The notes beneath the pieces are model-generated. The model did no database searches. It was given only the letters and a program-made list of their open reading frames with translations, and was not told the origin of the DNA. From an uncultured Thermoleophilia bacterium (lineage in GTDB: Bacteria > Actinomycetota > Thermoleophilia > UBA2241), in the NCBI GenBank assembly GCA_963736645.1, contig CAVTPJ010000008.1, forward strand, positions 653,325 through 717,324: DNA of 64,000 bases. Direction: 5' to 3'. Positions 6,727 through 43,701 of the stretch are shown one piece after another; the first letter of the stretch is position 1; each line of letters opens with the position of its first letter. Position numbers and translations under genes: made by a program.

Positions 6727-6824
6727 AGCCGGGCCTGTACTCCCACCGTTCCCGTATCGCCCGGGGTTGGACTGACGGCGCGCGGGGCGTTGGCGATTTC
6801 GTCGCACGTCTTCAGGAGGACGCA

Positions 6825-8615
6825 TTGGACTTCTACCAAGGCAAAGTGCTCAGGATCGACCTGAGCGCGGGCACCTCCGCCGTCGAGCCGCTCAACATGG
6901 AGTGGGCCGAGAAGTACATCGGCGGCAAGGGCCTGCTCCTGCGCTACATGTGGGAGGAGATCCCGCAAGGTCTCGACCCCTGGTCCGAGGACAATCCCGT
7001 CTTCCTCGTCACGGGGCCGTTCGCCGGCACCAACGTCAGCACGTCGTCGCGCCTCATCGTGGGCTGCAAGAGCCCGGTGACCGGGGTGCTCAACGACAGC
7101 TACGTGGGCGGCTCGTTCGCGCCCGAGATGAAGTTCGCCGGCTACGACATGATCATCATCACCGGGCGCGCTCCGCAGCCGACCGTGGTGACCATCAAGG
7201 ACGACGTGGTCGAGTTCCGGCCGGCGCAGCCCAAGTACTGGGGCATGAAGACCTCCGAGATCGAGCAGACGCTTCGCGAGGACTTCGACGAGAACGCCAA
7301 GGTGCTCTCCATCGGGCCGGCCGGCGAGAAGAAGGTCCCGTGGGCCTGCGTCTCCACCGACCAGTACCACAAGGCCGGACGTGGCGGTCACGGCGCGCTC
7401 CTGGGCGACAAGAACCTCAAGGCCGTCGCCATCCGCGGCACCGGCTCGGTGAGCGTCGGCGACGCCAAGGCGTTTCTCGCCGACATCTGGCGCATCCATG
7501 ACGAGCACGTCCTCACCGACGACAACTACTGGGTCCACGAAGAGGGCACGCCGATCCTCGTCGACCTCGTCAACGGCGCCGGCGCGTTCCCCACGCGCAA
7601 CTGGTCCGAGGGCGAGTTCGAGGACGCCGGCAACATCAACTCGGAGTCGTTCCAGAAGATCCGCATCAAGAAGCGCGCCTGCTACCAGTGCGCCATCGCC
7701 TGCCGCAACGTGCACAGCGTCGAGCTCGACGGCAAGACGGTCATGGGCGAGGGTCCGGAGTACGAGACCATCGCCCTCTGCGGCGCCAACTGCGGCATCG
7801 GCGACATCGCCGCGCTGGTCAAGTTCAACGAGCTGTGCGACGAGTGGGGCATGGACACCATCTCCTCGGGGTCGGTCCTCGGCCTCGCCATGGACCTCAC
7901 CGAGAAGGGCATCAAGGACTTCGGCGTGCGCTTCGGCGACGTGGAGAGCTATCTGGGCGCGCCCGAGCTCATGGCCACCCGCACCGGCGTCGGCGAGGAG
8001 CTCGCGCTCGGCTCGAAGCATCTGGCCGAGAAGTACGGCGCGCCCGAGCTGGCCATGGAAGTCAAGAACCTCGAGCTGCCGGGCTACGACCCGCGCGGCA
8101 CGTTCGGGATGAGCCTGTCGTACTCGACCTCCGACCGCGGCGGCTGCCACATGCGCTCGTATCCGGTCGGCGACGAGATCATCACCGGCGACGAGCCCGC
8201 CGACACCATGGAGGGCAAGGCCATCTACAACATCAACGGCCAGAACTTCTCCTCCATGAAATACCTCGGCATCTGGTGCGACTTCTGGGCGATCGACCTC
8301 AACCAGATGAGCCAGCTGTTCAAGCACGTCTGGAAGCGGGAGGTCACGGAGGAAGAGCTCGCGCTGGCCGGCGAGCGCGTCTGGAACCTCGGTCGCCTCT
8401 TCAATCTGCGCGAGGGCATGACGGCCGCCGACGACTACCTGCCCGAGCTGCTGCTCACCAGGCCGCACAAGAAGGGCCCCTCGGCCGGGCGGCTCATCGG
8501 CAAGGAGACCTTCGCCGAGAAGACGCAGGAGTACTACCAGCTCCGCGGCTGGGACGAGAACGGGGTCCCCACCGAAGAAAAACTCGCCGAGCTCGGCGTC
8601 GACGTCCGCCTCTAG
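6825..8615 (+). CDS. aor: tungsten-containing aldehyde:ferredoxin oxidoreductase
   Basis: 596 aa, AOR N- and C-domain motifs (Fe-S Cys ligands CYQCAIAC, pterin-binding GxxxDRGGCH..), full length; TAG stop. Confidence 0.9.
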   Translation: MDFYQGKVLRIDLSAGTSAVEPLNMEWAEKYIGGKGLLLRYMWEEIPQGLDPWSEDNPVFLVTGPFAGTNVSTSSRLIVGCKSPVTGVLNDSYVGGSFAPEMKFAGYDMIIITGRAPQPTVVTIKDDVVEFRPAQPKYWGMKTSEIEQTLREDFDENAKVLSIGPAGEKKVPWACVSTDQYHKAGRGGHGALLGDKNLKAVAIRGTGSVSVGDAKAFLADIWRIHDEHVLTDDNYWVHEEGTPILVDLVNGAGAFPTRNWSEGEFEDAGNINSESFQKIRIKKRACYQCAIACRNVHSVELDGKTVMGEGPEYETIALCGANCGIGDIAALVKFNELCDEWGMDTISSGSVLGLAMDLTEKGIKDFGVRFGDVESYLGAPELMATRTGVGEELALGSKHLAEKYGAPELAMEVKNLELPGYDPRGTFGMSLSYSTSDRGGCHMRSYPVGDEIITGDEPADTMEGKAIYNINGQNFSSMKYLGIWCDFWAIDLNQMSQLFKHVWKREVTEEELALAGERVWNLGRLFNLREGMTAADDYLPELLLTRPHKKGPSAGRLIGKETFAEKTQEYYQLRGWDENGVPTEEKLAELGVDVRL

Positions 8616-8627
8616 GAAGGGAATCCG

Positions 8628-9128
8628 ATGCCCCACGTGATGATCAGCAGGAAGAAGTGCACCGGGTGCCACATGTGCGAGCTGGCGTGCTCGGCCTACC
8701 ACGAAGGCGCCTACCGGCCGTCGGTCGCGCGGCTCTTCTCCGAGTGCAACCCCACCACCGCCGAGATCAAGGGGCACACGTGCCTCCAGACCGGTTGCGC
8801 CAAGTGTCAGGAGGCCTGTCCCAACGACGCCATCGTGACCAAGCGGATCACGGTGACGCCCAAGGGCTTCTTCGAGAGCAAGGAGAAGGTCGGGGACTCC
8901 GTCGAGGGCTTCGTGCTCGTCGTCGACGAGGACAAGTGCACCAACTGCGGCGAGTGCTACGAGGTGTGCCCCACAGACGTCATCCACCAGCACCCGGACC
9001 GCGAGGTCGCCTTCAAGTGCGACCTCTGCGACGGCGAGCCCCAGTGCATCGCCTTCTGCCAGAACAAGTACGTCTTCGCCGTCGATCTCAAGGTCGACAA
9101 GAAGGACAAGGAACTGGCGAGGGCGTGA
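8628..9128 (+). CDS. 4x[4Fe-4S] polyferredoxin, AOR electron-transfer subunit (AorA-like)
   Basis: Four Cys clusters (CTGCHMCELAC, CLQTGCAKCQEACP, CTNCGECYEVCP, CDLCDGEPQCIAFC); 12 nt after aor. Confidence 0.8.
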   Translation: MPHVMISRKKCTGCHMCELACSAYHEGAYRPSVARLFSECNPTTAEIKGHTCLQTGCAKCQEACPNDAIVTKRITVTPKGFFESKEKVGDSVEGFVLVVDEDKCTNCGECYEVCPTDVIHQHPDREVAFKCDLCDGEPQCIAFCQNKYVFAVDLKVDKKDKELARA

Positions 9129-9490: not shown

Positions 9491-10153
9491 ATGGACCAGC
9501 GCGGCCACAGATCCAGGCTCGAGCTGACCGGATTCGCCGACGCCGTGCACGGCCGGGCGAGCGTGCGCCGCTATCGCCCGGACCCGCTGCCGCGCGAGGA
9601 CGTGGCCGCCATGGTCGGCGTCGCCGTCCGGGCGGCCAACGCCGGCAACGCGCAGATGTGGCGCTTCGTCGCCGTGGAGGACGCGGGCCTGCGCGCGGCG
9701 ATGAGAGACGCCGTGGACGAGGCGCTCGACGTCATGGCGGCGTGGCCTGAGGCCGAGGACATGCAGAAGCGGCTGAAGGCGTATCGTGCCTACTCGACCT
9801 TCTTCGCCGAGGCGCCGCTCGTCATGGCCGTCTTCGGCCTCCCCTACGGCTCGATCGCGGACGAGCTGCTCGTCGAGCGTGGGACCTCTCGGGAAGAATG
9901 CGACCGGCTGCGTGCCCGCCCCGACCTGCAGAGCATCGGCGCCGCGGTGCAGCTGCTGTGCACGGCGGCGCACGCCATGGGCTACGGCTCGTGCTGGATG
10001 ACCGCGCCGGTCCTCGCCGCGCCGGCTATCGAGGCGCTGCTCGGGGTGGAGCCCCCGGCGACGCTGGTCGCGGTCGTCCCGATCGGCCTGCCGGCCTCTC
10101 CTCCGCGGCCGTCCACGCGTCGCCCGGTCGAGGACGTCCTCGAGTTCCGGTGA
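9491..10153 (+). CDS. nitroreductase family protein
   Basis: 220 aa, nitroreductase fold motifs (SVRRYRPDPLP, QMWRFVAVED, GYGSCWMT). Confidence 0.75.
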   Translation: MDQRGHRSRLELTGFADAVHGRASVRRYRPDPLPREDVAAMVGVAVRAANAGNAQMWRFVAVEDAGLRAAMRDAVDEALDVMAAWPEAEDMQKRLKAYRAYSTFFAEAPLVMAVFGLPYGSIADELLVERGTSREECDRLRARPDLQSIGAAVQLLCTAAHAMGYGSCWMTAPVLAAPAIEALLGVEPPATLVAVVPIGLPASPPRPSTRRPVEDVLEFR

Positions 10154-10264
10154 GCGCGCCGGTGCGCTTGCCGCCCCGCCCCGCCCCTCGGTACACTCGC
10201 GGGACGCGGCGCCGCGGCGCCGCCCGTACTCCCCAGCGGCCACAGTGAACGGGAGGAGCGTGCT

Positions 10265-11335
10265 GTGAACCACCCCGGCGTCTCGATCGGCAGCCTCTGC
10301 GCGCGCATCGTCGAGGGCGCCGTCCCCGACGAGCGCGACGTCGAGTCGCTGCTCCGTGCCGGCGACGAGGCGCCGCTCGTGTTCGCCGCAGCGCGCGAGC
10401 TGCGCGCGCGCCACTCCGGCGACGCCGTCTTCCTCTACGGGTTCGTGTACTTCTCCACCTACTGCCGCAACGAGTGCGCCTTCTGCTACTACCGCGCGGA
10501 CAATGAGCTGAGCCCACGCTATCGCAAGACGACCGAGGAGGTCGTCGAGATCTGTCGCGACCTCGCCGGCTCCGGTGTCGTGCTGCTGGATCTCACCATG
10601 GGAGAGGATCCCGTCATCCACGACGAGCCGGGCAATGCCGCGCTCGTCGAGCTCGTCGCCGCCGTGGCGGACGGCGCGGGGCTGCCGGTCATGATATCGC
10701 CCGGCGTGCTTCCTGAGGCCGCTCTCGGCGAGCTGCGCGAGGCCGGCGCCGACTGGTACGCACTGTACCAGGAGACCCACACACGCGAGCTCTACGATCG
10801 TCTGCGCATCGGCCAGCCGTTCGAGGCGCGCGCAGCCGCGCGTGCAGCCGCCCGGCGCGCCGGCCTGATGGTCGAGGACGGCCTGCTCACCGGCATCGGC
10901 GACTCCGCGGCCGACCGCGCCCGCTCGATCGCCGCCATGCGCACGGCCGGATGGGAACAGGTGCGCGTGATGACCTTCGTCCCCCAGACGGGCACCCCGC
11001 TCGAGGGTGCGTCTCCGGCCGGCGACGCCGACGAGCTGCTCACCATCGCCGCCATGCGTCTCGCCATGCCCGACCGCTTCATCCCCGCCTCACTCGACGT
11101 CGACGGCATCGCCGGCCTCGAACGGCGGCTCGAGGCCGGGGCGAACGTCGTCACGTCGATCGTGCCGCCGACCGTGGGGCTCGCCGGCGTATCCCAGGCG
11201 GAGCTGGACATCGACGAGGGCTACCGCACGGTGCACGGCGTCCTGCCTCACCTCGCCCGGCTCGGGCTGCGCCCGGCCGGCGTCGAGGAGTACCGTGAGC
11301 GGACGGCGGCGGTCCACGCCGCGTGCGCGCGGTGA
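10265..11335 (+). CDS. pylB: methylornithine synthase PylB (radical SAM)
   Basis: Near-collinear motif matches to Methanosarcina PylB as recalled from memory: FVYFSTYCRNECAFCYY (CxxxCxxC), DLTMGEDP, LPVMISPG, ALYQETHTRELYDRLRIGQ, VRVMTFVPQTGTPLEG, FIPASLDVDGIAG, AGANVVTSIVPP; RBS GGGAGGAG before the GTG. Confidence 0.9.
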   Translation: MNHPGVSIGSLCARIVEGAVPDERDVESLLRAGDEAPLVFAAARELRARHSGDAVFLYGFVYFSTYCRNECAFCYYRADNELSPRYRKTTEEVVEICRDLAGSGVVLLDLTMGEDPVIHDEPGNAALVELVAAVADGAGLPVMISPGVLPEAALGELREAGADWYALYQETHTRELYDRLRIGQPFEARAAARAAARRAGLMVEDGLLTGIGDSAADRARSIAAMRTAGWEQVRVMTFVPQTGTPLEGASPAGDADELLTIAAMRLAMPDRFIPASLDVDGIAGLERRLEAGANVVTSIVPPTVGLAGVSQAELDIDEGYRTVHGVLPHLARLGLRPAGVEEYRERTAAVHAACAR

Positions 11336-11339
11336 TCCC

Positions 11340-12584
11340 ATGCGCCTCCTGATCGTCGGCGGCAAGCTGCAGGGCACGGAGGCCGCCTATCTGGCGGCCA
11401 AGGCCGGGTGGGAGACCGTCCTGGTCGACCGGCACGACGCGCCGCCGGCCGCCGGCCTCGCCGACATGCACGTGATCGCCGACATCACCGCGGACGAGGC
11501 GCGAGCGCGGACCCTGGCAACCTCGTGCGACGCGGTCCTGCCTGCTTGCGAAGACGAGACCACACTCGCGTGGCTGGCGGCGCGCGTACCCCAGTGGGGC
11601 GTGCCGTTCCTGTTCGACCTCGACGCCTACCGCGTCACGGCGTCGAAGCTCGCGTCGCGCCGGATGTTCGCCTCGCTCGACGTGCCGCGGCCGGCCGCGT
11701 GGCCCTCTGGGGGCCTTCCCGCGGTGGTCAAGCCGAGCACCGCGAGCGGGAGCGAGGGCGTCGTCGTCGCCCACGATGAGAAGGAGCTCGACGCTGCCCG
11801 AGGCGAGCTGGAGGCGGCCGGCCATGATGTGGTCATCGAGGAGTACGTGCCCGGGCCGTCGCTGTCGATCGAGGTGCTGGCGTGGGGTGGGCGTGCCGTG
11901 CCGCTCCAGGTCACCGGCCTGGAGTTCGACGCGGCGTACGACTGCAAGCGCGTGGTCGCGCCGGTGGGCGAGGCGGCGGAAGGATCGCCTGCGGCGGTCG
12001 GCCTCGACGGCGCGTGTGACTGGGACGCGGCCGTCGGCGCCGGCGTGCTGGAGGCGCTGGACGCCGCGGCACTGCGCATCGCCCTCGGTCTTCGTCTGAA
12101 CGGCCTGATGGACGTCGAGGTCATGGTCGGCGGGCCGGAGCCCAAGGTCCTCGAGGTCGATGCGCGTCTTCCCAGCCAGACGCCGACCGCCGTGTACTGG
12201 TCCAGCGGCCTCAACATCGTCGAGCTCCTGGCCGAGACCGCGCGCGTGGGCGTGCCGCCGGCGGTGGACCGTACGGCCCGGCGCGCAGTCGTCTATCAGC
12301 ACGTGCGGGCCTCCGGGGGTTTGCTGGAGGTGCTCGGCGAGCATGTCATGGGAAGCGCCGGTCCCCTGAAACTGGTTCCCGGGTTCTTCGGCGCTGACGA
12401 GGCGCTCACGGACTACGCTCCTGGGCGCCGTGAGTGGGCGGCCACGCTGATCGTCGCCGCGGCGACCACCTCGGAGGCGCGTCGGCGGGCCGGAGAGACG
12501 GTGAGGAATGTGGCTGTCCACGAGCGCCTGGAGCCTGTACCTGAGGTAGAGATCGCACCGGCCTGTGAGGGAGGTCCCCGATGA
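11340..12584 (+). CDS. pylC: 3-methylornithine--L-lysine ligase PylC (ATP-grasp)
   Basis: N-terminus MRLLIVGGKLQGTEAAYLAAKAG matches the recalled PylC MKTICLVGGKLQGFEAAYL; EVDARLPSQTPTAVYWSSGLNIVELL matches recalled PylC IEIDARFPSQTPTVVYYSSGINLIELL. Confidence 0.9.
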   Translation: MRLLIVGGKLQGTEAAYLAAKAGWETVLVDRHDAPPAAGLADMHVIADITADEARARTLATSCDAVLPACEDETTLAWLAARVPQWGVPFLFDLDAYRVTASKLASRRMFASLDVPRPAAWPSGGLPAVVKPSTASGSEGVVVAHDEKELDAARGELEAAGHDVVIEEYVPGPSLSIEVLAWGGRAVPLQVTGLEFDAAYDCKRVVAPVGEAAEGSPAAVGLDGACDWDAAVGAGVLEALDAAALRIALGLRLNGLMDVEVMVGGPEPKVLEVDARLPSQTPTAVYWSSGLNIVELLAETARVGVPPAVDRTARRAVVYQHVRASGGLLEVLGEHVMGSAGPLKLVPGFFGADEALTDYAPGRREWAATLIVAAATTSEARRRAGETVRNVAVHERLEPVPEVEIAPACEGGPR

Positions 12585-13387
12585 CACGACTGACCGAGAC
12601 CGACGTCACGGCGCTGACGAGAGGCCTGGACGCGTTCGAGGACCGCTTGCTCCAGGTGTCGGGGCTTGACCTGCGCGACGTGGCCTTGCGCACGGCCACC
12701 GACGATGTGCGGTGCGTGCAGATGCGCGGCGCGCGTGTCGCGGTCGTCCCGGTGTCGTCGGGAGAAGGCTTCATTCCCGGGTTCACCGAGTGCGTCGAGG
12801 CGATCCTGACCCATCTCGGCTGTGACGCCTGGGTCACGACGCAACCCGACGTGCGCGGCATCCAGGCTGCTGTGGCCGCCGGCGCGACCGTCCTCTTCCT
12901 CGCCGACGATCGTCGCTTCATCGCCCTCAACGTCACGAGGGGGTGCTCCGCGGACGACGACCCCGCCACGGCCGACGGCTACGTGACCGTGCTCGACGCG
13001 GCGGCGGGGGGGCTCCTTGAGCGGCGCGTCCTGCTGCTCGGGCTGGGCCCCGTGGGTCGTGCGGCGGCGAGGCGACTCGTCAGTCGTGGGGCGACGGTCT
13101 TCGTGGCCGAGCCCGATGAGCAACGTGTCGCGGCGGCGCTCGACGTCGGTCTGAAGATCGAGCCCGTCGATCTCTCCAAGGGGCTGGAGCTCTGCGACCT
13201 GGTCTTCGACGCGTCCCCGGCGGCCGGCATCATCGACGCCGGCGACGTGGGACCGGAGACGATCGCCGCCGTCCCCGGCCTGCCCTCCGCCTTCACCGCG
13301 GCGGCTCAGGAGGTCCTCGGCGTGCGCCACATCCACGAGCCGCTCGCCATCGGCGTGGCGGTCATGGCGGCGCGCGCGTTGCTCTGA
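12581..13387 (+). CDS. pylD: pyrrolysine synthase PylD (3-methylornithyl-N6-lysine dehydrogenase)
   Basis: 268 aa; VAVVPVSSGEGFIPGFTE, Rossmann LLLGLGPVGRAAARRL and IHEPLAIGVAVM match recalled PylD motifs; overlaps pylC by 4 nt. Confidence 0.85.
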   Translation: MTRLTETDVTALTRGLDAFEDRLLQVSGLDLRDVALRTATDDVRCVQMRGARVAVVPVSSGEGFIPGFTECVEAILTHLGCDAWVTTQPDVRGIQAAVAAGATVLFLADDRRFIALNVTRGCSADDDPATADGYVTVLDAAAGGLLERRVLLLGLGPVGRAAARRLVSRGATVFVAEPDEQRVAAALDVGLKIEPVDLSKGLELCDLVFDASPAAGIIDAGDVGPETIAAVPGLPSAFTAAAQEVLGVRHIHEPLAIGVAVMAARALL

Positions 13388-13425
13388 CCGTGGCGCGCGG
13401 GCGTCGTTGTACAATCAACGGGCGC

Positions 13426-13498
13426 GGGGGGTCGATCGGAAGGATCAGCGTGGGCTCTAAACCCACGTAGGCGGGTGTGACTCCCGCACTCCCCGCCA
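13426..13498 (+). tRNA. pylT: tRNA-Pyl (anticodon CUA, amber suppressor)
   Basis: 73 nt GGGGGGTCGATCGGAAGGATCAGCGTGGGCTCTAAACCCACGTAGGCGGGTGTGACTCCCGCACTCCCCGCCA; anticodon loop CUCUAAA (CUA at 13458-13460); acceptor 5'-GGGGGG / CCCCGCCA-3'; architecture and sequence closely match the recalled Desulfitobacterium hafniense tRNAPyl; 38 nt after pylD. Confidence 0.85.
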
Positions 13499-13572
13499 GC
13501 ACTTCTCCTCTTCGCGGGGACGCGCATCCGGCGCCGGCCTCCGTCGCGGGCCGGGTCTCGGGGGGCTCCCGT

Positions 13573-14502
13573 TCAGTCGGCCGCGAAGGTCACCGGGATG
13601 CGCACCTCGTTCTGGCGGGAGCCATCCTCCATCGACTGGTCGAAGACCGTGAGCGTCCCGTCCGCGGCCGACGTCGAGTAGGGGACCCTCCTCGCGAAGG
13701 TCCCGCGGCCGGGGGCGCCGCGGGTGGCCTGCATGATGACGTTGACGACGCGGCGGCCGCTGGCGTCGACGAGGCGCGCCTGGAAGGAGCCTTCGAAGAC
13801 GCTCGCCGTCCCGGTGAGCGTGAAGGGGCTGGAGATCACGGCCCCGACCCCCGGCGACTCGACGAAGATCGCCGGCTCGAAGCTGCGCCAGTCGCTGCGG
13901 CGCTGGCTCTCGGCGAGCACGATCCCCTCGCCGCCCAGCGCGTCGACAGGGGTGCCGTCGAGCAGGAACTCGACCGACCTCACCGTGCGGAACTGGGTGA
14001 GTGTGTACACGACCTGTGCCACGCGGGCGGTCATCGAGAGAGTGCCGCCCCCTGAGGCGAACCGTCCGGAGAGGTCCACGCGTGCCGTCGTCCCGTCGAT
14101 GGTGAGGCCCAGGAGCCGGGTCCCCTTGGGGACCGCGCTGCCGAGGCCGGCGGCCCGCTCCCCGGCCGTCGGGCCGGCGAGCAGGCCGTTGACTGCCGCA
14201 GTGGCCGGCATGGACGTGGCCGGCACCCGGCGCTCTGCGACGCCGAGCTTCTCTCCCCGCAGGAAGTACACGCGGAGCGTCGTCTCCTCAGCGGCGCCGG
14301 ACGGCGATGGAGAAGGAGACTGCGACGGCTCCACCGATGGTCCGACCGTGACCGTGACCGTGGCGGTGGGCTTCGGGGATCCGTCGCCCGACGATCCGCC
14401 GCAGGCGGCGATCAGAGCGGACCCGATCACGACGACCACCGCCGCGGCGATCAGCAGGAGCGGGAGCAGGCGGCCGAAGCCGGCTGCGATGCGACGCGTC
14501 AT
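13573..14502 (-). CDS. GerMN-domain (spore germination protein-like) lipoprotein
   Basis: Lipobox LIAAC after the signal peptide, Ser/Pro-rich linker, then a GerMN plus Ig-like (Gmad2-type) region; start taken at M17 (ATG 14502). Confidence 0.6.
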   Translation of the reverse strand: MTRRIAAGFGRLLPLLLIAAAVVVVIGSALIAACGGSSGDGSPKPTATVTVTVGPSVEPSQSPSPSPSGAAEETTLRVYFLRGEKLGVAERRVPATSMPATAAVNGLLAGPTAGERAAGLGSAVPKGTRLLGLTIDGTTARVDLSGRFASGGGTLSMTARVAQVVYTLTQFRTVRSVEFLLDGTPVDALGGEGIVLAESQRRSDWRSFEPAIFVESPGVGAVISSPFTLTGTASVFEGSFQARLVDASGRRVVNVIMQATRGAPGRGTFARRVPYSTSAADGTLTVFDQSMEDGSRQNEVRIPVTFAAD

Positions 14503-14609
14503 CGGGCACCTCGGGTCGATGTGGGTGGGACGAACCTTCGACGTCCCCACGCCGCGCTCCTGCTCACTCCGCCGGGAGCTCCGGGACGCCGTGCTAGACT
14601 GGCGTCCCG

Positions 14610-14939
14610 ATGCCGACCGACCCCAACAAGGCGCGCTATTATCGCAAGCAGGTCCCGCTCTTCCGTCTGGTAGAGAAGATGAAGCTGTGGCCGTCGCGGA
14701 GAGGCATCCTCCACGGGATCAGGCAGTTCGAGGAGCGCGGCCGTTACGCTGTCGTGGTGACGCACTGCGGCAAGCACATGGTCGTCCACGACTCCAAGAC
14801 GAGCCGCGCCGCCCGCTGGCTGCGCAACAAGTGGTATGCGGAGGCCTGTCCGCAGTGCCGCATCCCGGAGTGGAAGCTGCAGAAGTACGCCTCGACGCAG
14901 TTCAAGCGCGGGTACGGCTCGCACCTGCACGACCTCTGA
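14610..14939 (+). CDS. pylSn: pyrrolysyl-tRNA synthetase N-terminal tRNA-binding domain protein (PylSn)
   Basis: 109 aa; LWPSRRGILHGI...CGKHMVVHDSKTSRAARWLRNKWYAEACPQCRI aligns with the recalled M. mazei PylRS N-domain LWMSRTGTIHKI...[33 protein letters not shown] (zinc-ribbon Cys conserved). Confidence 0.85.
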   Translation: MPTDPNKARYYRKQVPLFRLVEKMKLWPSRRGILHGIRQFEERGRYAVVVTHCGKHMVVHDSKTSRAARWLRNKWYAEACPQCRIPEWKLQKYASTQFKRGYGSHLHDL

Positions 14940-14964
14940 GCCGGCGCCGGCGCCGGCCCCTCCG

Positions 14965-15843
14965 CTAGAGCAGGCGCCAGCTCTCCGGGCGCAGCTGCAC
15001 GGACTCCGGCGCGCCCAGCACCCGGTCCAGCTGTTCAAGGATGGCCGCCTTGTCGCCGGGCAGGCGGCCGCCGATCGGCAGGTAGTTCGAGGCGTGGTTG
15101 CAGCGGAAGAGGCAGTCCGTGACGTCCAGGTGCGCGACGATCTCGCGCAGCTCGCGGAGCATCCCGACGGAGTCCGGCAACACGACCTCGCTGGTGGCCA
15201 CCTTGCGCTCCATCGCCGTACCCGGGGTGAGCATGAGCGTGAGAAGCCCGATGTACTCGGGGTCGATCGACGACAGCGCGCTGCCCGTCGCCGCGGCGTG
15301 GACCAGCGAACGCTCTCGACCGGCGAGACCGAGGATCGCGGTGACCGAGAGCCGCATGCCGGCGTCCGACGCTCGCCGGCATCCTTCGATCTGCTCGGCC
15401 ACGGTCATGCCCTTGTGGATGGCCGCGAGCGTCTCGTCGTCGCCGGACTCGAGGCCCAGATAGAGAAGGCGTATGCCGCGCTCGCGTAGCGCCGCCAGCT
15501 CCTCCACCGACTTGGCAAGGAGGTTCTTCGCGTTGGCGTAGCTGCTCACCCGCTCGAGGTTGGGCAGGGCGCGGTGCAGCAGGTCGAGGATCGCATCGAG
15601 TCTGCGGGCGCTGAGCGCCATCGCGTCGCCGTCGGCCAGGAAGACCCGCCTGACGCGCTGGCGCACGCTCGCCGGCAGTCCGGTGACGTCTTCGACGACC
15701 TCGTCGAACGGTCGCACGGAGAACGGTTTGTCGAGGTAGGTGCCGCAGAAGTCGCAGGTGTTGTTGGAGCAGCCGTACGTGACCTGCACGATCAGGCTGT
15801 CGGCCTCGCTGGGGGGACGGATGACGGCGCCGTGGTACCTCAC
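14965..15843 (-). CDS. radical SAM domain protein (uncharacterised)
   Basis: CSNNTCDFC radical-SAM cluster motif about 25 aa after a GTG at 15843; the track ORF extends to 16017 but the upstream Arg/Pro-rich stretch looks non-coding. Confidence 0.65.
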   Translation of the reverse strand: MRYHGAVIRPPSEADSLIVQVTYGCSNNTCDFCGTYLDKPFSVRPFDEVVEDVTGLPASVRQRVRRVFLADGDAMALSARRLDAILDLLHRALPNLERVSSYANAKNLLAKSVEELAALRERGIRLLYLGLESGDDETLAAIHKGMTVAEQIEGCRRASDAGMRLSVTAILGLAGRERSLVHAAATGSALSSIDPEYIGLLTLMLTPGTAMERKVATSEVVLPDSVGMLRELREIVAHLDVTDCLFRCNHASNYLPIGGRLPGDKAAILEQLDRVLGAPESVQLRPESWRLL

Positions 15844-16113
15844 GGTATCGATGCTAGCATGGGCCGCCGGGCGGCGCTCCCCGCTCCGGCGGCTTGGCGG
15901 GAACCGCGTGCTCCCGGCTTGTGGTCGGCGGCTCAAGCGGCTGATATACTCCCGGCACGTGCTGTGGGAGGGCGTCCGGGGGAGCGTCCGGCCGGAAGGG
16001 ATCCGGCTCGTTCTCACCTCCGGCTTGCGGTGTCATCGCCCGATCCTCATGCACCCGCCATACCTCGTTGCGCGGTAAACAGTTGTGAGCAAAGTCGGGA
16101 GGAGTCCAGGGTC

Positions 16114-16746
16114 ATGGCAGACATCTACGCAGAAGCAGCCGAGACTATCGTGAACGCCGATCGGGCCGCGGCCGAGGAGGTCGCGCAGCGCGCGCTCGAC
16201 TCCGGCATCGCCCCGGCGGACATCATGCAGAACGGCTTCGTCAAGGGCATCCAGGAGGTCGGCGACCTCTTCGAGAGCGGCGAGGTCTTCCTCCCCGAGC
16301 TCATGATGAGCGCGGACGCCATGGCCGGCGCCACCGAGGTCACCAACGCCGCCCTCGAGGGCGAGGCCGCCGAGGCCAAGGGCGTCATGGTCATCGGCAC
16401 CGTCCAGGGCGACGTCCACGACATCGGCAAGGCGATCGTCATCGCCTATCTCAAGGCCAACGGCTACGAGGTCACCGACCTCGGCCGCGACGTCAGCGCC
16501 GACACCTTCGTCGAGAAGGCCAAGGAGCTCAACGCCGACGTCATCGGCATGAGCGCCCTGCTCACCACCACCATGGAGGAGCAGAAGAAGGTCATCAAGG
16601 TCATCAAGGAGGAGGGCCTGCCCTTCAAGACCGTCGTCGGCGGCGCGCCGTGCACGCAGCGCTGGGCCGACCAGATCGGCGCCGACGCCTACGCCGAGGA
16701 CGCCAACGACGGCGTCAAGAAGATCGACGCGCTGCTGGGCAAGTAG
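16114..16746 (+). CDS. cobalamin-binding corrinoid protein (methyltransferase cognate, MtmC/MttC/MtbC-like)
   Basis: 211 aa; B12-binding DxHxxG motif (GDVHDIGK) and helical cap domain; RBS GGGAGGAG upstream of ATG 16114; TAG stop. Confidence 0.8.
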   Translation: MADIYAEAAETIVNADRAAAEEVAQRALDSGIAPADIMQNGFVKGIQEVGDLFESGEVFLPELMMSADAMAGATEVTNAALEGEAAEAKGVMVIGTVQGDVHDIGKAIVIAYLKANGYEVTDLGRDVSADTFVEKAKELNADVIGMSALLTTTMEEQKKVIKVIKEEGLPFKTVVGGAPCTQRWADQIGADAYAEDANDGVKKIDALLGK

Positions 16747-16770
16747 GCGCGCGTCACACGAGTGCTTCCC

Positions 16771-16798
16771 GAGGGGCGGGCCGTGCGGCCCGCCCCTC
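16771..16798. terminator. bidirectional hairpin terminator between the corrinoid gene and pylSc
   Basis: Perfect 12-bp GC stem GAGGGGCGGGCC-gtgc-GGCCCGCCCCTC between convergent genes. Confidence 0.5.
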
Positions 16799-16840
16799 GT
16801 GCGTACGGGGGCGGGCGAAGCGGTCTCCGCCCGCGGCCGG

Positions 16841-17701
16841 CTAGAGGTTGAGCCGCACGCCGTCGACGTAGCTGAGGCTACGGCCTGCGCGCTCGATGTT
16901 GGGATAGCCCTCGCGCGTCATGATGAGGCGCTCGAGCCCGAACCCGAGCCCGACCCACGGGTCGACGATGCCCCAATTGCCGTCCAGCGGGTGTGGGCCG
17001 AGGCCCGCGGAGCACACCTCGGCCCCTCCGACCAGGACGTCGATCATGGCGCCGTAGACCTCCGAGTCCGTGACCTCGAGCTCGTACGAGGCGATGCCGG
17101 CAGCGTCCATGACGAGGCGGGCGAGAGTCTCCAGCCGCTCCCGGCCCTCCTTGGCCGGCCTGCCGAGCTCGACGAGGTTCAGCATCGTGAACTCGTTCAG
17201 GTGGCTGGCCCCCTTGCTGTCCCGGCGGAAGCACGGGCCGATCTCGAAGATGCCGAACGGCTTGGTCCAGAGCCTGCTCAGCCTGCGGAGCAGGGTGTAC
17301 AAGTTGGGCGCGAGCATCGGCCGCAGGCAGCGGCCGTCGTCGAGCCAGAACACCTGCTCGCGGAGCGGGTGACCGTGCTCGATACCCATCTTGCGCAGCG
17401 CGTCCGAAGTGATGATGAGCGGGGTCACGACGCGGACGAAGCCGGCGGCGACGAGCGCGTCGCTGAGGCCCGTCTCGAGCTCGACGAGTTGCGGAGCCCG
17501 CCGGCCTTCGCGCAGCTCCCGCAGCCGCCGCCGTCCGTCCGCCGCCAGCTCGTTCTCGAGCCGCTTGAAGGCTGCATCGCGAGCGTCGGAGCTCGCGAAG
17601 AGCTCGTCGAGCACGACCGGGTCGCCGCCGAGCTCACGCAAGCGCTGCGACTGCGTCGCCGTCAGGCGGACGCGGAGAGCGTCGGCTTCGTCCGGTGTCA
17701 C
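16841..17701 (-). CDS. pylSc: pyrrolysyl-tRNA synthetase catalytic domain (PylSc)
   Basis: Class II aaRS core; CLRPMLAPNLYTLLRRLSRLWTKPFGIFEIGPCFRRDSKGASHLNEFTMLNL and C-terminal SYVDGVRLNL near-collinear with recalled D. hafniense PylSc and M. mazei PylRS; start GTG 17701 overlaps the upstream amidase stop (GTGA); the track ORF extends an Arg-rich 67 aa further and is rejected. Confidence 0.9.
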   Translation of the reverse strand: MTPDEADALRVRLTATQSQRLRELGGDPVVLDELFASSDARDAAFKRLENELAADGRRRLRELREGRRAPQLVELETGLSDALVAAGFVRVVTPLIITSDALRKMGIEHGHPLREQVFWLDDGRCLRPMLAPNLYTLLRRLSRLWTKPFGIFEIGPCFRRDSKGASHLNEFTMLNLVELGRPAKEGRERLETLARLVMDAAGIASYELEVTDSEVYGAMIDVLVGGAEVCSAGLGPHPLDGNWGIVDPWVGLGFGLERLIMTREGYPNIERAGRSLSYVDGVRLNL

Positions 17702-18783
17702 GGCGTCCCATCCTCTATCGGGACGCGCGCGAGGTAGTCGGCGAACCCGCCGACCAGCGCGCGCGCCAGCCTCTCCACGTACTCCGGCCGCTGCGTCTGC
17801 GCTTCGTCGTCCGGGCAGGTCAGAAAGAGCGGCTCGACCACGAGGGCGATGCCGCGGGTCTCGCGCAGGACGCCGTAGTTGCGTCCGAAGCCGCCGAGCC
17901 ACGGTACGCCGGCGGCTTCCAGACGGGCGCCGATGTAGCCCGCCAGACGGCGTCCGTGCTCCGAGTAGTAGTGGCTGCGCTGGAAGAAGTAGCCGGCGCC
18001 CCCGCGGGCCGCCGGCGACGCGTCCTCATTGCAGTGCAGTGAGAGGAAGTAGGAGGAGCCGGCGGCGTTCGCCGCGTCGGCGCGGGCGTAGAGCGGCACG
18101 CGCTCGTCGGTCTCGCGCGTGAGGTGCACGCGGCAGCCCTCGGCGCGGAGCAGCTCCGCCAGCCGCCGGCCCAGGGCGAGCGTCACGTCTTTCTCCACGA
18201 CGCCGCCCGGCGAGACGCAGCCCAGGTCGTTGCCGCCGTGGCCGGGGTCGACCGTGACGGCCTGCCCGGTGAGGCCGCGGGCGGCGACGAAACCACGGTC
18301 GCGCTCGGGGATCTTCTTCCCCTCGCGCCCTGACTCGGCCTTGCGCACCGCCTCGAGCTTTCGGAGGGTGCTCTCGCCGACGATGCCGTCCACCGGGACG
18401 CCCGCGTTCTGCTGGAAGTCGAGGACGGCGCGTTCGACGTCCTCGTCGAGTACGCCGCGCTCGGCGCCGGCGTTGAAGCCCAGCAGGTTCAACTTGACCT
18501 GCAGTTGGAGGACGTCGTCGCCGCGGAACGGCGGCTCGCGAAGATAGAGCAGACGGTCGCCGAGCGTGTAGCCCGCTTCGACGATCTCGCGCCAGGTGTT
18601 GGCGCCGACGCGGCCGTCGGCAAGCAGCCCGCGCTCCTGCTGGAACGAGAGGACGGCGCCCTCCGTATGGGGACCGAAGAAGCCGTCCACGCCTTCCCGG
18701 CCTAGCTGGAAACCCTGCCCGCGCAGGCGGGTCTGGACGTCGAGGACTTCTTTGCCGCGGTCGCCGCGGGAGAGGTCACGCAC
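17698..18783 (-). CDS. N-acetylmuramoyl-L-alanine amidase with peptidoglycan-binding repeats
   Basis: Two PG_binding_1-like repeats N-terminal, then an Amidase_3 domain (VTVDPGHGGNDLG...LSLHCNE). Confidence 0.8.
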   Translation of the reverse strand: MRDLSRGDRGKEVLDVQTRLRGQGFQLGREGVDGFFGPHTEGAVLSFQQERGLLADGRVGANTWREIVEAGYTLGDRLLYLREPPFRGDDVLQLQVKLNLLGFNAGAERGVLDEDVERAVLDFQQNAGVPVDGIVGESTLRKLEAVRKAESGREGKKIPERDRGFVAARGLTGQAVTVDPGHGGNDLGCVSPGGVVEKDVTLALGRRLAELLRAEGCRVHLTRETDERVPLYARADAANAAGSSYFLSLHCNEDASPAARGGAGYFFQRSHYYSEHGRRLAGYIGARLEAAGVPWLGGFGRNYGVLRETRGIALVVEPLFLTCPDDEAQTQRPEYVERLARALVGGFADYLARVPIEDGTP

Positions 18784-18837: not shown

Positions 18838-19686
18838 TCAGATGCCCATGCCCGAGCGCACGCCGGCCACGATCAGGACGATCATCCCTGCGCCGATCGC
18901 GAATCGGTAGATGACGAAGATGGTGAAGTCGTGCTTGCGCAGGTAGGCGAGCAGGAACCAGATCGCGGCGAACCCGCTGACCGCTGCGGCGACCATGCCG
19001 GCGAGGAACGGTCCTGCCGTGCCTGGGGGCAGCCCGTCGCGCGCGACCTCCAGGCCCTTGTACAGAGCGGCGCCGCCGACGATGGGGATGCTCATCAGGA
19101 AGGAGAAGCGCGCCGCCGCCTCGCGGGTGAGGCGCAGGAACAGGCCGGTGACCATGGTGACGCCCGAGCGGGAGACGCCCGGTGAGAGGGCGAGCGCCTG
19201 GGCGCCGCCGATCAGCAGGGCGTCCCTCCAGGACAGATCCTCCATCTCGCGCTCGTGGCGTGCGTACCGGTCGGCCGCCCACATCACGCCGCCGAAGCCG
19301 ATCATGAGCATCGCCAGCATCCAGGGCTTGCCGAGGACCTCGACGATGACGTCCTCGAAGAGCACCCCGACGATGGCCGCGGGGACCATGCTGACGATGA
19401 TGAGCCAGGCGAGCTTGCCGTCCGTCGAGTCGAGGCGGCGATTCGCGATGGTGCGCGCCCAGGCCGCGAGGAGCCTTCCGATGTCGCGCCAGAAGTACAC
19501 GACCAGCGAGATGAACGTGCCGAAGTGCAGCGCCACGTCGAACGTCTTGTTGAGGTCCGGGTTCTCGAGGAGGAAGTGCCAGTTGAACAGCCAGGGGACG
19601 ATGAGCAGGTGGCCCGAGCTGGAGATGGGCAGGAACTCGGTGAGGCCCTGCACGATGCCGAGGATGATGGCCTGCACGATCGTCAT
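18838..19686 (-). CDS. uppP: undecaprenyl-diphosphate phosphatase
   Basis: 282-aa polytopic membrane protein with BacA/UppP motifs (GLTEFLPISSSGHL, SRSG). Confidence 0.9.
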   Translation of the reverse strand: MTIVQAIILGIVQGLTEFLPISSSGHLLIVPWLFNWHFLLENPDLNKTFDVALHFGTFISLVVYFWRDIGRLLAAWARTIANRRLDSTDGKLAWLIIVSMVPAAIVGVLFEDVIVEVLGKPWMLAMLMIGFGGVMWAADRYARHEREMEDLSWRDALLIGGAQALALSPGVSRSGVTMVTGLFLRLTREAAARFSFLMSIPIVGGAALYKGLEVARDGLPPGTAGPFLAGMVAAAVSGFAAIWFLLAYLRKHDFTIFVIYRFAIGAGMIVLIVAGVRSGMGI

Positions 19687-30251: not shown

Positions 30252-30983
30252 GTGGAGTGGCTGTACGGCCGCAATGTCGTCAGGATGGCTCTCGCGGCCG
30301 GCGCGCGGCGGCGGGCCTACCGGCTCGCCGCGACGTCCCCGGCCCTGGACGCCGTCGCCGGGCTCGTTCCCGACGAGCTGCCGGTCGACACGGTGAGCGG
30401 TGCGGCGCTCGATGAGCTCCTCGGAACGCACGAGCACCAGGGGGTCGCGCTGCAGGTGGAGTCGTATCGGTACGCCGATCCCGGCGCGCTTCTCGCCGCC
30501 GACGTCCTCGTCGCGCTCGACGAGGTCACCGACCCGCACAACCTCGGCGCCGTGGCGCGCAGCGCACTCGCCGCCGGCGCGGCGGGTCTCGTCGTGCCGA
30601 AGCACCGCTCGGCCCGCGTGACGCCGGCCGCCGTGAAGGCATCCGCGGGCACCCTGGAGCTGCTGCGCGTGGCCCAGGTCACGAACGTCGTCGCCTTTCT
30701 GCGTCGCGCCAAGGAGGCCGGGTTCTGGGTCTACGGCGCCGCCGGCGACGCCGACGCCTCCTACGTCGACACGGACCTCACAGGACGCGTGGTCATCGTC
30801 GCCGGCGCCGAGGGCCGCGGCTTGCGGCCACTCGTGGCGCGGACCTGCGACGCGCTCGTCTCCATTCCCATGGAGGCTCCGGTGGAGAGCCTGAACGTGA
30901 GTGTGGCCGCCGCGCTGCTCCTCTACGAAGCGCGGCGGCAGCGCGAAGCGGCCGCCGGATCAGCACCCGGTGACGGCCGGTGA
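30252..30983 (+). CDS. rlmB: 23S rRNA (guanosine-2'-O)-methyltransferase RlmB (SpoU/TrmH family)
   Basis: SPOUT motifs (DEVTDPHNLGAVARSA, VIVAGAEGRGL) and B. subtilis yacO-like position after cysS. Confidence 0.85.
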   Translation: MEWLYGRNVVRMALAAGARRRAYRLAATSPALDAVAGLVPDELPVDTVSGAALDELLGTHEHQGVALQVESYRYADPGALLAADVLVALDEVTDPHNLGAVARSALAAGAAGLVVPKHRSARVTPAAVKASAGTLELLRVAQVTNVVAFLRRAKEAGFWVYGAAGDADASYVDTDLTGRVVIVAGAEGRGLRPLVARTCDALVSIPMEAPVESLNVSVAAALLLYEARRQREAAAGSAPGDGR

Positions 30984-31498
30984 CCACCGACATCGTCTAC
31001 ATCGTCGACGGCTACAACGTGCTGCACGCGCTGTTCCGCGGCGCGGACAAGGAGGAGATCTTCGCGCGCCGCGACTGGCTCGCCGATCGGCTCGCGGGAT
31101 TCGCCGCGCTGCGCGGGGCGCGGGCCGTGCTGGTGTTCGACGGCAGCGGCCCGCGCAGTACCAGCAGCGAGCCCGTGAAGGGCGCGCCGGTCGAGATGGT
31201 CTTCGCCGGCGGGCGTTTCACGGCCGACACCCTGATCGCTCGCCGCATCGCCGATCAGCCGGCGGACGTCCAGGTGGTCGTCGTCTCCGCCGACCAGGAG
31301 GTCCAGCGCGCGGCCTCTCGAGCCGGTGTGACTCGCATGACGCCCTCGGAACTGGCGGGCGCACTCGGCGAGGACGATCGCCTCGGGCAGGCTCTTGACT
31401 CTGCCCCAGACTCCACTAGAATGCCCTCACGGCTTGAGGATAAAGTTGACCCTGAGACTTTGCGACGACTCGAGGAGATGCGCCACAAGCCGACGTAG
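30980..31498 (+). CDS. yacP: NYN-domain ribonuclease (YacP/Rae1-like)
   Basis: 172 aa, DGYNVLHA N-terminus typical of YacP; conserved position between rlmB and sigH. Confidence 0.75.
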   Translation: MTTDIVYIVDGYNVLHALFRGADKEEIFARRDWLADRLAGFAALRGARAVLVFDGSGPRSTSSEPVKGAPVEMVFAGGRFTADTLIARRIADQPADVQVVVVSADQEVQRAASRAGVTRMTPSELAGALGEDDRLGQALDSAPDSTRMPSRLEDKVDPETLRRLEEMRHKPT

Positions 31499-31561
31499 AC
31501 GTTCCGCGAGGTTCGATGTGCGGGATGTGCAGGGGCAAACGAGCGGAGGTGGGGACAACGA

Positions 31562-32239
31562 ATGGCTCGCCAGGCCGACCACAGCCGCGGCACGGGATCG
31601 TCTCACAACCCTCAACCATTCAGTGAGAGTGCCGACTTCGCGCTCGTCCAGGCGTATCGCCGTGGCAACAAGGCCGCGCTCGACGCGCTCATGGCGCGCT
31701 ATCACCAGTTCGTGCGCCTCAAGGCCAGTTCGTACTTCCTGGCCGGCGGGGACGCGGAAGACCTGATCCAGGAGGGGCTGCTCGGCCTCTACAAGGCGGT
31801 CCGCGACTACCGCGACGACCGCCTGGCCAGCTTTCGCAGCTTCGCGGAGCTCTGCATCACCCGCCAGATCATCACCGCGATCAAGACGGCGACGCGCCAG
31901 AAGCACGTGCCGCTGAACGGCTACCTGTCGTTCAGCCAGTCGCCGAGCGATTCGTCCGACGACGGCGACTGCTCGCTCGCCGACGTGCTGCCGGGGCCCA
32001 CCACGCACGATCCGGTCAACCAGGTCATCAGCTCCGAAGAGGTGGACAGCCTCACCGGCTGCCTCACGCGGATGCTCTCCGAGCTCGAGGGCAAGGTCCT
32101 GCGGCTCTACCTGCAGGGCCTCAGCTACGAGCGCATCGCCGGTGAGCTCGGCTGCGACTGCAAGACCGTGGACAACGCCCTGCAGCGCATCAAGCGCAAG
32201 GTGGACCTGCACCTCGAGGGACGGCGCGTCCCCAGCTGA
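31562..32239 (+). CDS. sigH: RNA polymerase sigma-H factor (sigma-70 family)
   Basis: Region 2 (DAEDLIQEGLLGLYKAVRDY) and region 4 HTH (LSYERIAGELGCDCKTVDNALQR); position downstream of yacP as in Bacillus. Confidence 0.8.
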   Translation: MARQADHSRGTGSSHNPQPFSESADFALVQAYRRGNKAALDALMARYHQFVRLKASSYFLAGGDAEDLIQEGLLGLYKAVRDYRDDRLASFRSFAELCITRQIITAIKTATRQKHVPLNGYLSFSQSPSDSSDDGDCSLADVLPGPTTHDPVNQVISSEEVDSLTGCLTRMLSELEGKVLRLYLQGLSYERIAGELGCDCKTVDNALQRIKRKVDLHLEGRRVPS

Positions 32240-37493: not shown

Positions 37494-37706
37494 GGCGCTC
37501 CTTGGAACTGGGAACGAGCCATCGGGGTCGCTGGTCGGTCTGTGGCCGATCCGCGGCCGCGAGAGGGCGGTCACCCGGTCGATGATGTCAGTCGCAAGGT
37601 CTCACGCCGCGCGGCCGGGCAAACGCCGCGCGGAAGCGCTTCTTCAAGGGACAGCATACCGCACTGCAGACGGGGTGACGCCCGCCGCTCCCGGCGGGGC
37701 AGGCCC

Positions 37707-39328: not shown

Positions 39329-39572
39329 GCGGCTTCCTTTCCCCTACCTGCCCTGTGCCGCGCGTAATCGTATATGGATTGGGGCGGCGCGCAACCCCTT
39401 GGCGCGGACGGGCGTCGCGCCGCCCGTGGCCCGCCCGGATCGGGCCGTTGCCGCGTCAGGCGACAGGCGATCGGCGCACGGCCGTAAGGTTTGGCGCCGC
39501 GGTGTCGTTAATGAGATGGGGAGCCACGGCGCTTGAACGCGGGCGGTCAACGGACCAGGGAGGTCGCAGAAG

Positions 39573-40003
39573 TGAAGAGGATCCTGCCAATGATCGTCGT
39601 CGCCGCGCTGGCGCTGACGCTCGTCCCGCTGGCCCTGGCCGGCGCGTCGGGCGGCGGGGGCTGGAAGCACGGCAAAGCCAAGTTCAACCTGGTAGGCACG
39701 GTCACCGCCGTGGACGCCTCGGCCGGCACCATGACCATCGACGTCAAGGCCGGCACCAGGAGCGTGCGCGTGCTCCGCGACGCTCCGGCGCCCGTCACCC
39801 TGCCGGTCGCGACCGGCGCGCGCATCCGCCTGGTGAGCGCCGACGGCTGCGTCAAGATCGAGCTGGGTCAGGTGCCGGCGCCCGGCGCCAAGGTCAAGGC
39901 TCGCGGCAAGATCAGCGGCGCGGGCACCGAGCTGGTGTACACCGTGTATGACGTGAAGGTGAAAGCGCCGGCCGTAGTCCCTGAGCCCTCACCGGCGGAG
40001 TAG
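39573..40003 (+). CDS. secreted hypothetical protein (DUF5666-like)
   Basis: Signal peptide (ILPMIVVAALALTLVPLALA) and repeated GTVTAVDA...TMTIDVK motif; GTG with RBS GGGAGG. Confidence 0.45.
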
Positions 40004-43694: not shown

Positions 43695-43701
43695 CGCCGC
43701 C

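Follow-up and report, generated by a model that had tools for sequence, protein, structure and literature searches.

A stretch of 64,000 nucleotides from the chromosome of an uncultured Thermoleophilia bacterium (hereafter the window) carries, between positions 10265 and 17701, the genes of a pyrrolysine (Pyl) encoding system. An initial annotation, read from the letters of the window, had proposed that all six components lie there: the biosynthetic proteins PylB, PylC and PylD, the tRNA-Pyl gene pylT, and the two halves, PylSn and PylSc, of a split pyrrolysyl-tRNA synthetase (PylRS). These identities were assayed with hidden Markov models (HMMs), taking the curated equivalog cut-offs of NCBIfam as the threshold for Pyl protein calls in the window. 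The open reading frames (ORFs) assigned to PylB, PylC, PylD and PylS all scored above the cut-offs of TIGR03910, TIGR03909, TIGR03911 and TIGR02367, as did PylSn with TIGR03912, and ARAGORN detected tRNA-Pyl. The positions agreed with those first given to within a few bases (Table 1). Five matches at curated thresholds rule out chance as the source of the Pyl gene identities.

Table 1. Coordinates of the pyl genes, their putative control elements and neighbouring genes in the window.
Feature	Positions	Strand	Evidence or description
Putative pylB promoter	10168-10197	+	-35 TTGCCG (10168-10173), 18-nt spacer, -10 TACACT (10192-10197)
pylB 5' leader	10198-10264	+	CUCCCC (10229-10234) can pair with Shine-Dalgarno GGGAGG (10251-10256)
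pylB, methylornithine synthase (radical SAM)	10265-11335	+	TIGR03910, 448 bits (cut-off 348)
pylC, 3-methylornithine--lysine ligase (ATP-grasp)	11340-12584	+	TIGR03909, 331 bits (cut-off 248)
pylD, 3-methylornithyl-N6-lysine dehydrogenase	12581-13387	+	TIGR03911, 206 bits (cut-off 150); PylD_N (PF21455), 97 bits
Putative pylT -10 element	13410-13415	+	TACAAT, 10 nt upstream of first tRNA base
pylT, tRNA-Pyl	13426-13498	+	ARAGORN; anticodon CUA, 3' CCA encoded
Germane/Gmad2 (GerM-like) lipoprotein gene	13573-14550	-	Pfam PF10646, PF10648
Putative pylSn extended -10 element	14592-14600	+	TGcTAGACT, ends 9 nt ahead of ATG
pylSn, small tRNA-binding PylRS subunit, 109 aa	14610-14939	+	TIGR03912, 127 bits (cut-off 51)
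Radical SAM gene, 292 aa	14965-15843	-	PF04055; CX4CX2C (GCSNNTCDFCG), TAG stop
Methyltransferase-cognate corrinoid protein gene (MtbC/MttC-like)	16114-16746	+	TIGR02370, 229 bits (cut-off 215)
pylSc, catalytic PylRS subunit, 286 aa	16841-17701	-	TIGR02367, 326 bits (cut-off 178); GTG start
N-acetylmuramoyl-L-alanine amidase gene	17698-18783	-	Pfam, 2x PG_binding_1 and Amidase_3
uppP, undecaprenyl-diphosphatase	18838-19686	-	TIGR00753, 245 bits (cut-off 217.5)
prfA, release factor 1	60923-62014	+	NF001859, 486 bits (cut-off 400); TIGR00019, 485.5 bits (cut-off 423)

The three biosynthetic genes are tightly packed. The ATG of pylC lies 4 nt beyond the TGA of pylB, and the pylC stop overlaps the pylD start (ATGA), with GGGAGG 6 nt upstream. 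The PylB translation carries a CX3CX2C motif (CRNECAFC). The synthetase also has the features expected from the initial annotation, which had assigned it to the bacterial split class, with PylSn and PylSc encoded by separate genes, here on opposite strands. Among solved structures, Desulfitobacterium hafniense PylSc (3DSQ/2ZNI) was closest to PylSc (323 bits, gapless over 273 residues), against 237 bits for the Methanomethylophilus alvus type and 198 bits for the Methanosarcina mazei type; the top PDB matches were PylRS without exception, and the EFTMLN motif is kept. PylSn aligned to the N-terminal domain of M. mazei PylRS (5UD5), with the Cys/His zinc ligands CGxH...CxxC retained. Judged by homology, this PylRS is an orthodox bacterial split enzyme.

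The pylT product is the sole tRNA found by ARAGORN in the window; the general Rfam tRNA model missed it in a scan of the same 64 kb. Its minimum-free-energy fold is a compact cloverleaf. The acceptor stem has 7 bp and the anticodon stem 6/7 bp, a single base precedes the D stem, the D loop (5 nt) lacks GG, the variable region is 3 nt long and the discriminator is G73. The T loop reads UGUGACU, without the T-psi-C sequence. These are the structural features that define tRNA-Pyl (PMC3941956).

Layout of the locus and its conservation in the clade

In the window, the order is pylB-pylC-pylD-pylT, a gerM-like gene, pylSn, a radical SAM gene, a corrinoid protein gene and pylSc. The placement of pylT after pylD had been read correctly, as had that of pylSn and pylSc on opposite strands, about 1.9 kb apart with the radical SAM and corrinoid genes between them, which the HMM and Pfam matches confirm. 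Bacterial pyl clusters are ordered pylTScBCDSn or pylSnScBCD, sometimes with interruptions by other genes (Borrel 2014, PMC3941956); neither order is found here, in agreement with the early remark that the layout departs from the compact arrangement.

The gerM-like gene had gone unmentioned. It points towards pylT and away from pylSn, occupies the same position in all related loci that reach that far, and is not part of the Pyl system. The corrinoid protein combines a B12-binding_2 cap (PF02607) with a B12-binding Rossmann domain (PF02310), and its top PDB match was MttC (7XCN, 185 bits). On the MtbC-specific model NF041607, it scored 216, below the cut-off of 350, and its substrate class was therefore left unassigned. 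The radical SAM protein matched PF04055 only; no specific NCBIfam or PDB family and no informative source name was found for it. Its 292 residues are the usual length among hundreds of homologues, and 7878 matches at E<=1e-10 were obtained from metagenomes. Its motif is unusual, and the protein looks like the catalytic half of a B12-binding radical SAM enzyme without the B12 domain.

At the other end of the locus, pylSc follows uppP and the amidase gene on the same strand. The first gene of the row, uppP, lies 54 nt upstream of the amidase gene. The GTG of pylSc (17701-17699) and the TGA of the amidase gene (17700-17698) share a 4-nt overlap, with GAGGA 9 nt upstream. This junction upholds the earlier placement of pylSc at the end of a cell-wall operon and supports its reading, from sequence, as a translationally coupled last gene of uppP-amidase-pylSc.

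Relatives were collected by scanning for PylSc in one genome per GTDB species, which yielded 43 loci (handles prefixed L). In 41 of these, PylSc is 68-89% identical to that of the window, and nearly all are titled Thermoleophilia, Actinomycetes or Actinomycetota metagenome-assembled genomes (MAGs), many being long-read MAGs from Danish soil. L042 is an archaeal locus (PylSc 47% identity). Look-ups of the exact PylSc, PylD and PylSn sequences of the window found none of the three on record. Two loci carry other labels, Deltaproteobacteria bacterium (L012, PylSc 86%) and candidate division Zixibacteria (L035, 70%); since they share Thermoleophilia-type synteny, they are probably mis-binned or mislabelled. 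The genome had at first been called Firmicutes-like. This description has to be abandoned: the closest syntenic relatives are Thermoleophilia/Actinomycetota MAGs, and Thermoleophilia is a class of Actinomycetota. The impression may have come from the SigH-like sigma factor, the GerM-like protein and the CwlD/SleB-like amidase. The sigma factor gene (31499-32239, + strand) scored above the cut-off of a SigH (sporulation) model (NF006148, 252 bits against 208).

When the window proteins and pylT were mapped on all loci, the same order and orientation were recovered in 41 syntenic loci, as far as the contigs reach: OsmC, uppP-amidase-pylSc, corrinoid, radical SAM, pylSn, gerM-like, pylT-pylD-pylC-pylB-nitroreductase-ferredoxin-AOR. 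The dispersed layout pointed out initially is real, yet it is fixed clade-wide in about 40 species rather than being a quirk of one genome. The radical SAM gene, wherever present in the clade, is transcribed away from the corrinoid gene; it is missing in L029 and L034. L035 has neither of the two genes, so that pylSc and pylSn are directly convergent. Most loci have uppP upstream of the amidase gene; a few lack it. Of the 44 sequences compared (43 loci and the window), 34 retain the [A/G]TGA overlap between amidase stop and pylSc start; in five more (L022, L025, L027, L034, L043) the NTGA junction is also present, with the pylSc start shifted.

Insertions among the pyl genes of relatives encode a SAM methyltransferase, a HIBADH-like dehydrogenase, an aminotransferase and a large surface protein; these are unrelated genes, and none is a methylamine methyltransferase. 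Some MAG loci show genes split over frames: the radical SAM gene in L032, L036 and L038, and pylB/pylC/pylD in L032 and L040. The most likely cause is homopolymer error in long-read assembly, not true pseudogene formation.

Selection was assayed by pairwise Nei-Gojobori ratios of nonsynonymous to synonymous substitution (dN/dS), given as medians for the window against up to 39 relatives. The ratio was 0.17 for PylB, 0.23 for PylC, 0.24 for PylD, 0.11 for PylSn and 0.20 for PylSc, with 0.16-0.37 for flanking genes. By this measure, the pyl genes are under purifying selection. PylSn is 82-95% identical to its relatives. The best-conserved protein of the locus is the corrinoid protein (83-99% identity); the radical SAM protein is 80-96% identical in 25 syntenic loci and 55% in L037. 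The corrinoid gene has a median dS of 0.19, against 0.46-0.78 for its neighbours, which suggests strong constraint at the codon or nucleotide level, high expression or gene conversion.

The tRNA is near-invariant, with nine distinct sequences in 28 loci, a mean identity of 97% and 98.5% of cells paired. Double changes preserve pairing: G6:C became C:G in L037, and G29:C37 became A:U in L033 and L026. A U to C change at position 26 (window 13451) in L001, L006, L007, L041, L033 and L035 gives an uncompensated C-A mismatch in the anticodon stem. The GC content of 10265-17701 is 71.0%, that of the whole window 70.2%; the pyl genes range over 0.70-0.725, with pylSn at 0.645. Divergence of the pyl genes tracks that of flanking housekeeping genes (rho 0.52-0.89; Spearman 0.68-0.89 with the amidase, OsmC and nitroreductase genes). 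Taken together, low dN/dS, host-like GC, divergence in step with the flanks and a near-invariant tRNA with paired changes point to an old acquisition followed by vertical inheritance.

Conservation was also the guide to putative promoters. Upstream of pylB, the window and 10 loci in which a spacer follows the nitroreductase gene share a conserved promoter-like element and a conserved leader of about 67 nt. The element is absent from 13 other loci, where pylB begins directly at the nitroreductase stop; thus pylBCD may be co-expressed with AOR-ferredoxin-nitroreductase in those species. A promoter scan with the E. coli consensus did not call the pylB element. Within the leader, the two segments that can pair (Table 1) enclose a highly conserved loop of 16 nt, AGCGGCCACAGUGAAC. 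RNAalifold predicted the helix sequestering the Shine-Dalgarno sequence, weakly (-5.6 kcal/mol) and without compensatory change. Shuffling of the single sequence gave a z-score of +0.44. Neither covariation nor energetics supports this structure. In the 64 kb, Rfam gave zero matches at the gathering score, and no known riboswitch was found in the pylB leader. A regulatory role of the leader is speculative.

The putative -10 hexamer of pylT is fixed in position in 28 of 28 sequences, as TACAAT or the variants TAGAAT, TAGGAT, TATGAT and TAGTAT, within a GC-rich spacer that is otherwise unconserved. In most loci, a pyrimidine-rich (CT) tract follows the CCA (window 13499-13525), in otherwise unconserved sequence, and might aid termination or processing. 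For pylSn, the putative -10 element stands at the same position in 27 of 29 sequences (TAGACT or TACACT) and further upstream in L031 and L037; no Shine-Dalgarno sequence precedes the gene in the 29 sequences compared. Since the element ends so close to the ATG and a Shine-Dalgarno sequence is lacking, the pylSn mRNA would be leaderless or near-leaderless from the predicted start site. Leaderless mRNAs are common in Actinobacteria. The divergent gerM-like gene starts only 59 nt from pylSn.

UAG as stop codon and as probable pyrrolysine codon

Stop codons were counted from a gene call based on GC content at third codon positions. The 44 genes of the window end in TGA (35), TAG (7) or TAA (2), and 395 genes of relatives in TGA (293), TAG (74) or TAA (28). 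TAG thus makes up 16-19% of stops, which matches the expectation for a GC-rich genome. The genes that it terminates include rho and the radical SAM gene of the locus. Release factor 1 (RF1) is encoded in the window by prfA, in the neighbourhood rho-rpmE-DUF1385-prfA-prmC. Because RF1 is encoded and TAG ends 7 of 44 genes, UAG is read here as an ordinary stop, and the window does not have the marks of a genome-wide UAG-to-Pyl code. Pyl insertion would then have to rely on competition with RF1 and on a regulated supply.

Potential targets were searched with the archaeal mtbB, mttB and mtmB genes of L042, which contain one in-frame TAG each. By tblastn of these MtbB, MttB and MtmB queries against the window and all loci, one match was found, in L003 (690-2054), a relative whose PylSc is 87% identical to that of the window. 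The L003 mtbB gene shares a contig with the pyl locus, scored 427 bits on TIGR02368 (cut-off 369) and is 45% identical to its archaeal counterpart. Its in-frame TAG coincides precisely with the Pyl position of archaeal MtbB (...KVDGY-TAG-AGAGD...).

A search of 5.8 billion proteins with the L003 MtbB gave at least 120 clusters at 62-100% identity. Among the clusters listed, nearly all mtbB calls are about 344 aa long (74% of the query), that is, ended by the TAG at the Pyl position; the in-frame TAG was verified in L044, L045 and L049. In L044-L048 and L051, mtbB (344 aa plus about 110 aa) is followed by an ABC transporter, beside surE-HAD-ligA. The high-GC contigs L049 (1-13035) and L050 (1-13023) are methylamine islands, with three TAG-split mtbB genes, a TAG-split mttB, a corrinoid protein and a TetR regulator, together with a full-length non-Pyl MttB-family gene and an ABC transporter or amino-acid permease. 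For L049, the in-frame TAG of mttB was verified at ...FVAGL-TAG-TDSKL...

The terminal stop of mtbB in some relatives is also TAG (L003, 327-2258, - strand; L044/L045, 10001-11450), and in L003 two further in-frame TAGs occur within 11 codons after it. Read-through of the terminal TAG would give a C-terminally extended MtbB. In the window, three pairs of ORFs in the same frame with a stop between them (6729-9128, 30974-32239, 39515-41374) were considered as candidates for in-frame TAG read-through, and all proved to be merely adjacent genes. At 8613-8630, the AOR gene ends in TAG and the ferredoxin gene starts 12 nt on in the same frame, so that read-through would fuse both; the same junction is found in L002, L003, L006, L009, L025 and L038. 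Since neither the stop (TAG, TAA or TGA) nor the frame is constant from species to species, a programmed fusion was rejected, the arrangement being probably incidental.

Proposed decoding system and its alternatives

Taken as a whole, the sequence comparisons make it very probable that the locus is a functional Pyl encoding system of bacterial type in a Thermoleophilia chromosome of about 70% GC, broken up, old and vertically inherited, with its targets elsewhere in the genome. PylB, PylC and PylD would turn two lysines into pyrrolysine, and PylSc, aided by the tRNA-binding PylSn, would charge tRNA-Pyl(CUA). The charged tRNA would compete with RF1 at UAG, its targets being the in-frame UAG codons of methylamine methyltransferase genes. 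The main target candidate is mtbB, joined by mttB in some relatives, and the corrinoid protein encoded among the pyl genes could plausibly accept the methyl group. The cassette would fall into four or more transcription units, distributed over the two strands. One is pylBCD, which here would have a promoter and leader to itself but in other species is joined to the nitroreductase operon that precedes it; pylT would be driven from a -10 element of its own, pylSn would form a leaderless single-gene unit, and pylSc would be translationally coupled to the housekeeping uppP-amidase cell-wall operon. As pylSc is tied to a housekeeping operon, the regulated step is more likely Pyl synthesis by pylBCD or the supply of pylT.

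Four points weigh against this interpretation. Neither a methylamine methyltransferase gene nor any credible in-frame TAG gene occurs in the 64-kb window; a Pfam scan of about 50 window ORFs found no MttB, MtbB, MtmB, MtaA-type or RamA-type genes. The actinobacterial origin of most contigs with mtbB homologues (L044-L051) was deduced from a GC content of about 66-70% and from the 62-81% identity that their products share with L003 MtbB. With only 40% identity between the corrinoid protein of the locus and the one beside mtbB and mttB in L049, any partner of the former is putative. Finally, the promoters of pylB, pylT and pylSn were placed from conservation alone.

A locus whose genes are dispersed, interleaved with unrelated genes and spread over both strands, with no target gene in the window, could be a decaying or idle relic, acquired horizontally, scattered by rearrangement and no longer serving translation. 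Such a fate is very unlikely. All genes are intact, and dN/dS ratios of 0.11-0.24 across up to 39 species comparisons largely refute it, while the tRNA has stayed near-invariant with compensatory changes and the coupling junction and the promoters are conserved. Moreover, a UAG-containing mtbB is present in one relative and abundant among close homologues. Another possibility is that the system is functional but partly co-opted for a role other than methylamine methyltransferases, either with Pyl-tRNA or PylSc taking part in cell-wall chemistry or with the radical SAM and corrinoid proteins forming a split B12-dependent enzyme linked to Pyl. The clade-wide coupling of uppP-amidase-pylSc fits the former; the latter draws on the likeness of the radical SAM protein to the catalytic half of B12-binding enzymes and on its gene adjoining, divergently, a strongly conserved corrinoid gene. 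However, L035 has all pyl genes without this gene pair, and L029 and L034 do without the radical SAM gene. The corrinoid protein is of the textbook MtbC/MttC type, and an operon neighbourhood by itself is weak evidence of a common function. We regard co-option as quite improbable.

A genome-wide code in which UAG means pyrrolysine has recently been proposed for some archaea. For the window, reassignment of UAG throughout the genome would agree with the position of pylSc inside a housekeeping operon, which suggests constitutive expression, and with the mtbB genes of relatives ending at TAG. It is nevertheless extremely improbable given the RF1 gene in the window and the use of TAG as terminator by 7 of the 44 genes there and by 74 of the 395 genes of relatives; in addition, the stop of one and the same gene switches between TAG, TAA and TGA from species to species. 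Within the favoured interpretation, that of a functional system with targets elsewhere, a more specific proposal is that the cassette is no longer a mobile module sufficient to itself and has been wired piecemeal into the chromosome, with constitutive PylSc, leaderless pylSn, pylT under its own promoter and the Shine-Dalgarno-sequestering pylBCD leader as a switch of UAG decoding. This we put forward as tentative and, on balance, rather doubtful.

Bacterial pyrrolysine has been documented mainly in Firmicutes and Deltaproteobacteria, and is usually seen as a compact, horizontally mobile cassette. The reference bacterial split system, that of D. hafniense (pylT-pylSc-pylB-pylC-pylD-pylSn), has the same six components with separate PylSn and PylSc genes, and its tRNA resembles the present one in G73, G1:C72, the 6-bp anticodon stem and the short variable loop. 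Unlike D. hafniense, the window has pylT after pylD, an interval of 1.9 kb between the convergent pylSn and pylSc, and coupling of pylSc to the gene of a cell-wall amidase, in an actinobacterial host of 70% GC, and its likely main target is mtbB, not mttB. In Acetohalobium arabaticum, the genetic code is reportedly expanded conditionally: UAG is said to stay a stop while Pyl decoding is limited by regulation. There, the whole cassette reportedly forms one inducible unit, whereas here the promoters are predicted to be separate and pylSc looks constitutive. Interruption by unrelated genes is shared with bacterial pyl clusters in general; in contrast to these, the synthetase halves and the biosynthesis genes lie here in separate units on opposite strands, fixed across about 40 species.

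The initial annotation, which gave the rarity of Pyl systems as a reason for documenting the locus, overstated its novelty. Actinobacterial PylRS and Pyl-type mtbB/mttB have already been reported: two Actinobacteria are among 81 PylRS-encoding bacterial genomes (Guo 2022, PMC9630628), and Actinobacteriota MAGs express Pyl-encoding mtbB and mttB in the thawing permafrost peat mire of Stordalen Mire (Ellenbogen 2023, PMC10805028). These Actinobacteria belong to the same phylum and share the inferred physiology, in which Pyl enzymes demethylate di- and trimethylamine in a non-methanogenic way; neither paper (PMC10805028, PMC9630628) describes the pyl locus, how it is laid out or how it is distributed within Thermoleophilia. 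Our literature search found no paper linking pyrrolysine with Thermoleophilia in substance. From the comparisons made here, the host clade, the number of species, the stable break-up into what appear to be separately transcribed pieces with an amidase-coupled pylSc, and a likely emphasis on mtbB would be new. The known mechanism of the Pyl system is unaltered by these findings.

In dozens of species of an actinobacterial class common in soil and wetland, the Pyl machinery would thus be a stable chromosomal component, rearranged and passed on vertically, with a link to dimethylamine methyltransferase genes. This would widen the known host range and support the idea that bacteria compete with methanogens for methylamines. 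It would also provide a natural case of genetic-code expansion with components made from separate expression units, and the high-GC split PylRS/tRNA pair is a candidate for trials in Streptomyces-type hosts. If the piecemeal wiring were true, this abundant, uncultured clade would be a major unrecognised non-methanogenic sink of di- and trimethylamine, and its high-GC actinobacterial PylRS/tRNA pair would come with a new regulatory logic.

Further observations

Directly upstream of pylB in most loci stands a nitroreductase-family gene (window 9491-10153, + strand) with weak BluB/FbiB-C similarity, below the cut-offs. Elsewhere in the window, further corrinoid-related genes were noted: a B12-binding radical SAM protein (36081-37601, - strand), BchE/HpnJ-like with scores below the cut-offs, a DUF1638 protein (41974-42762, - strand) and a CobA/BtuR corrinoid adenosyltransferase (43495-44226, + strand).

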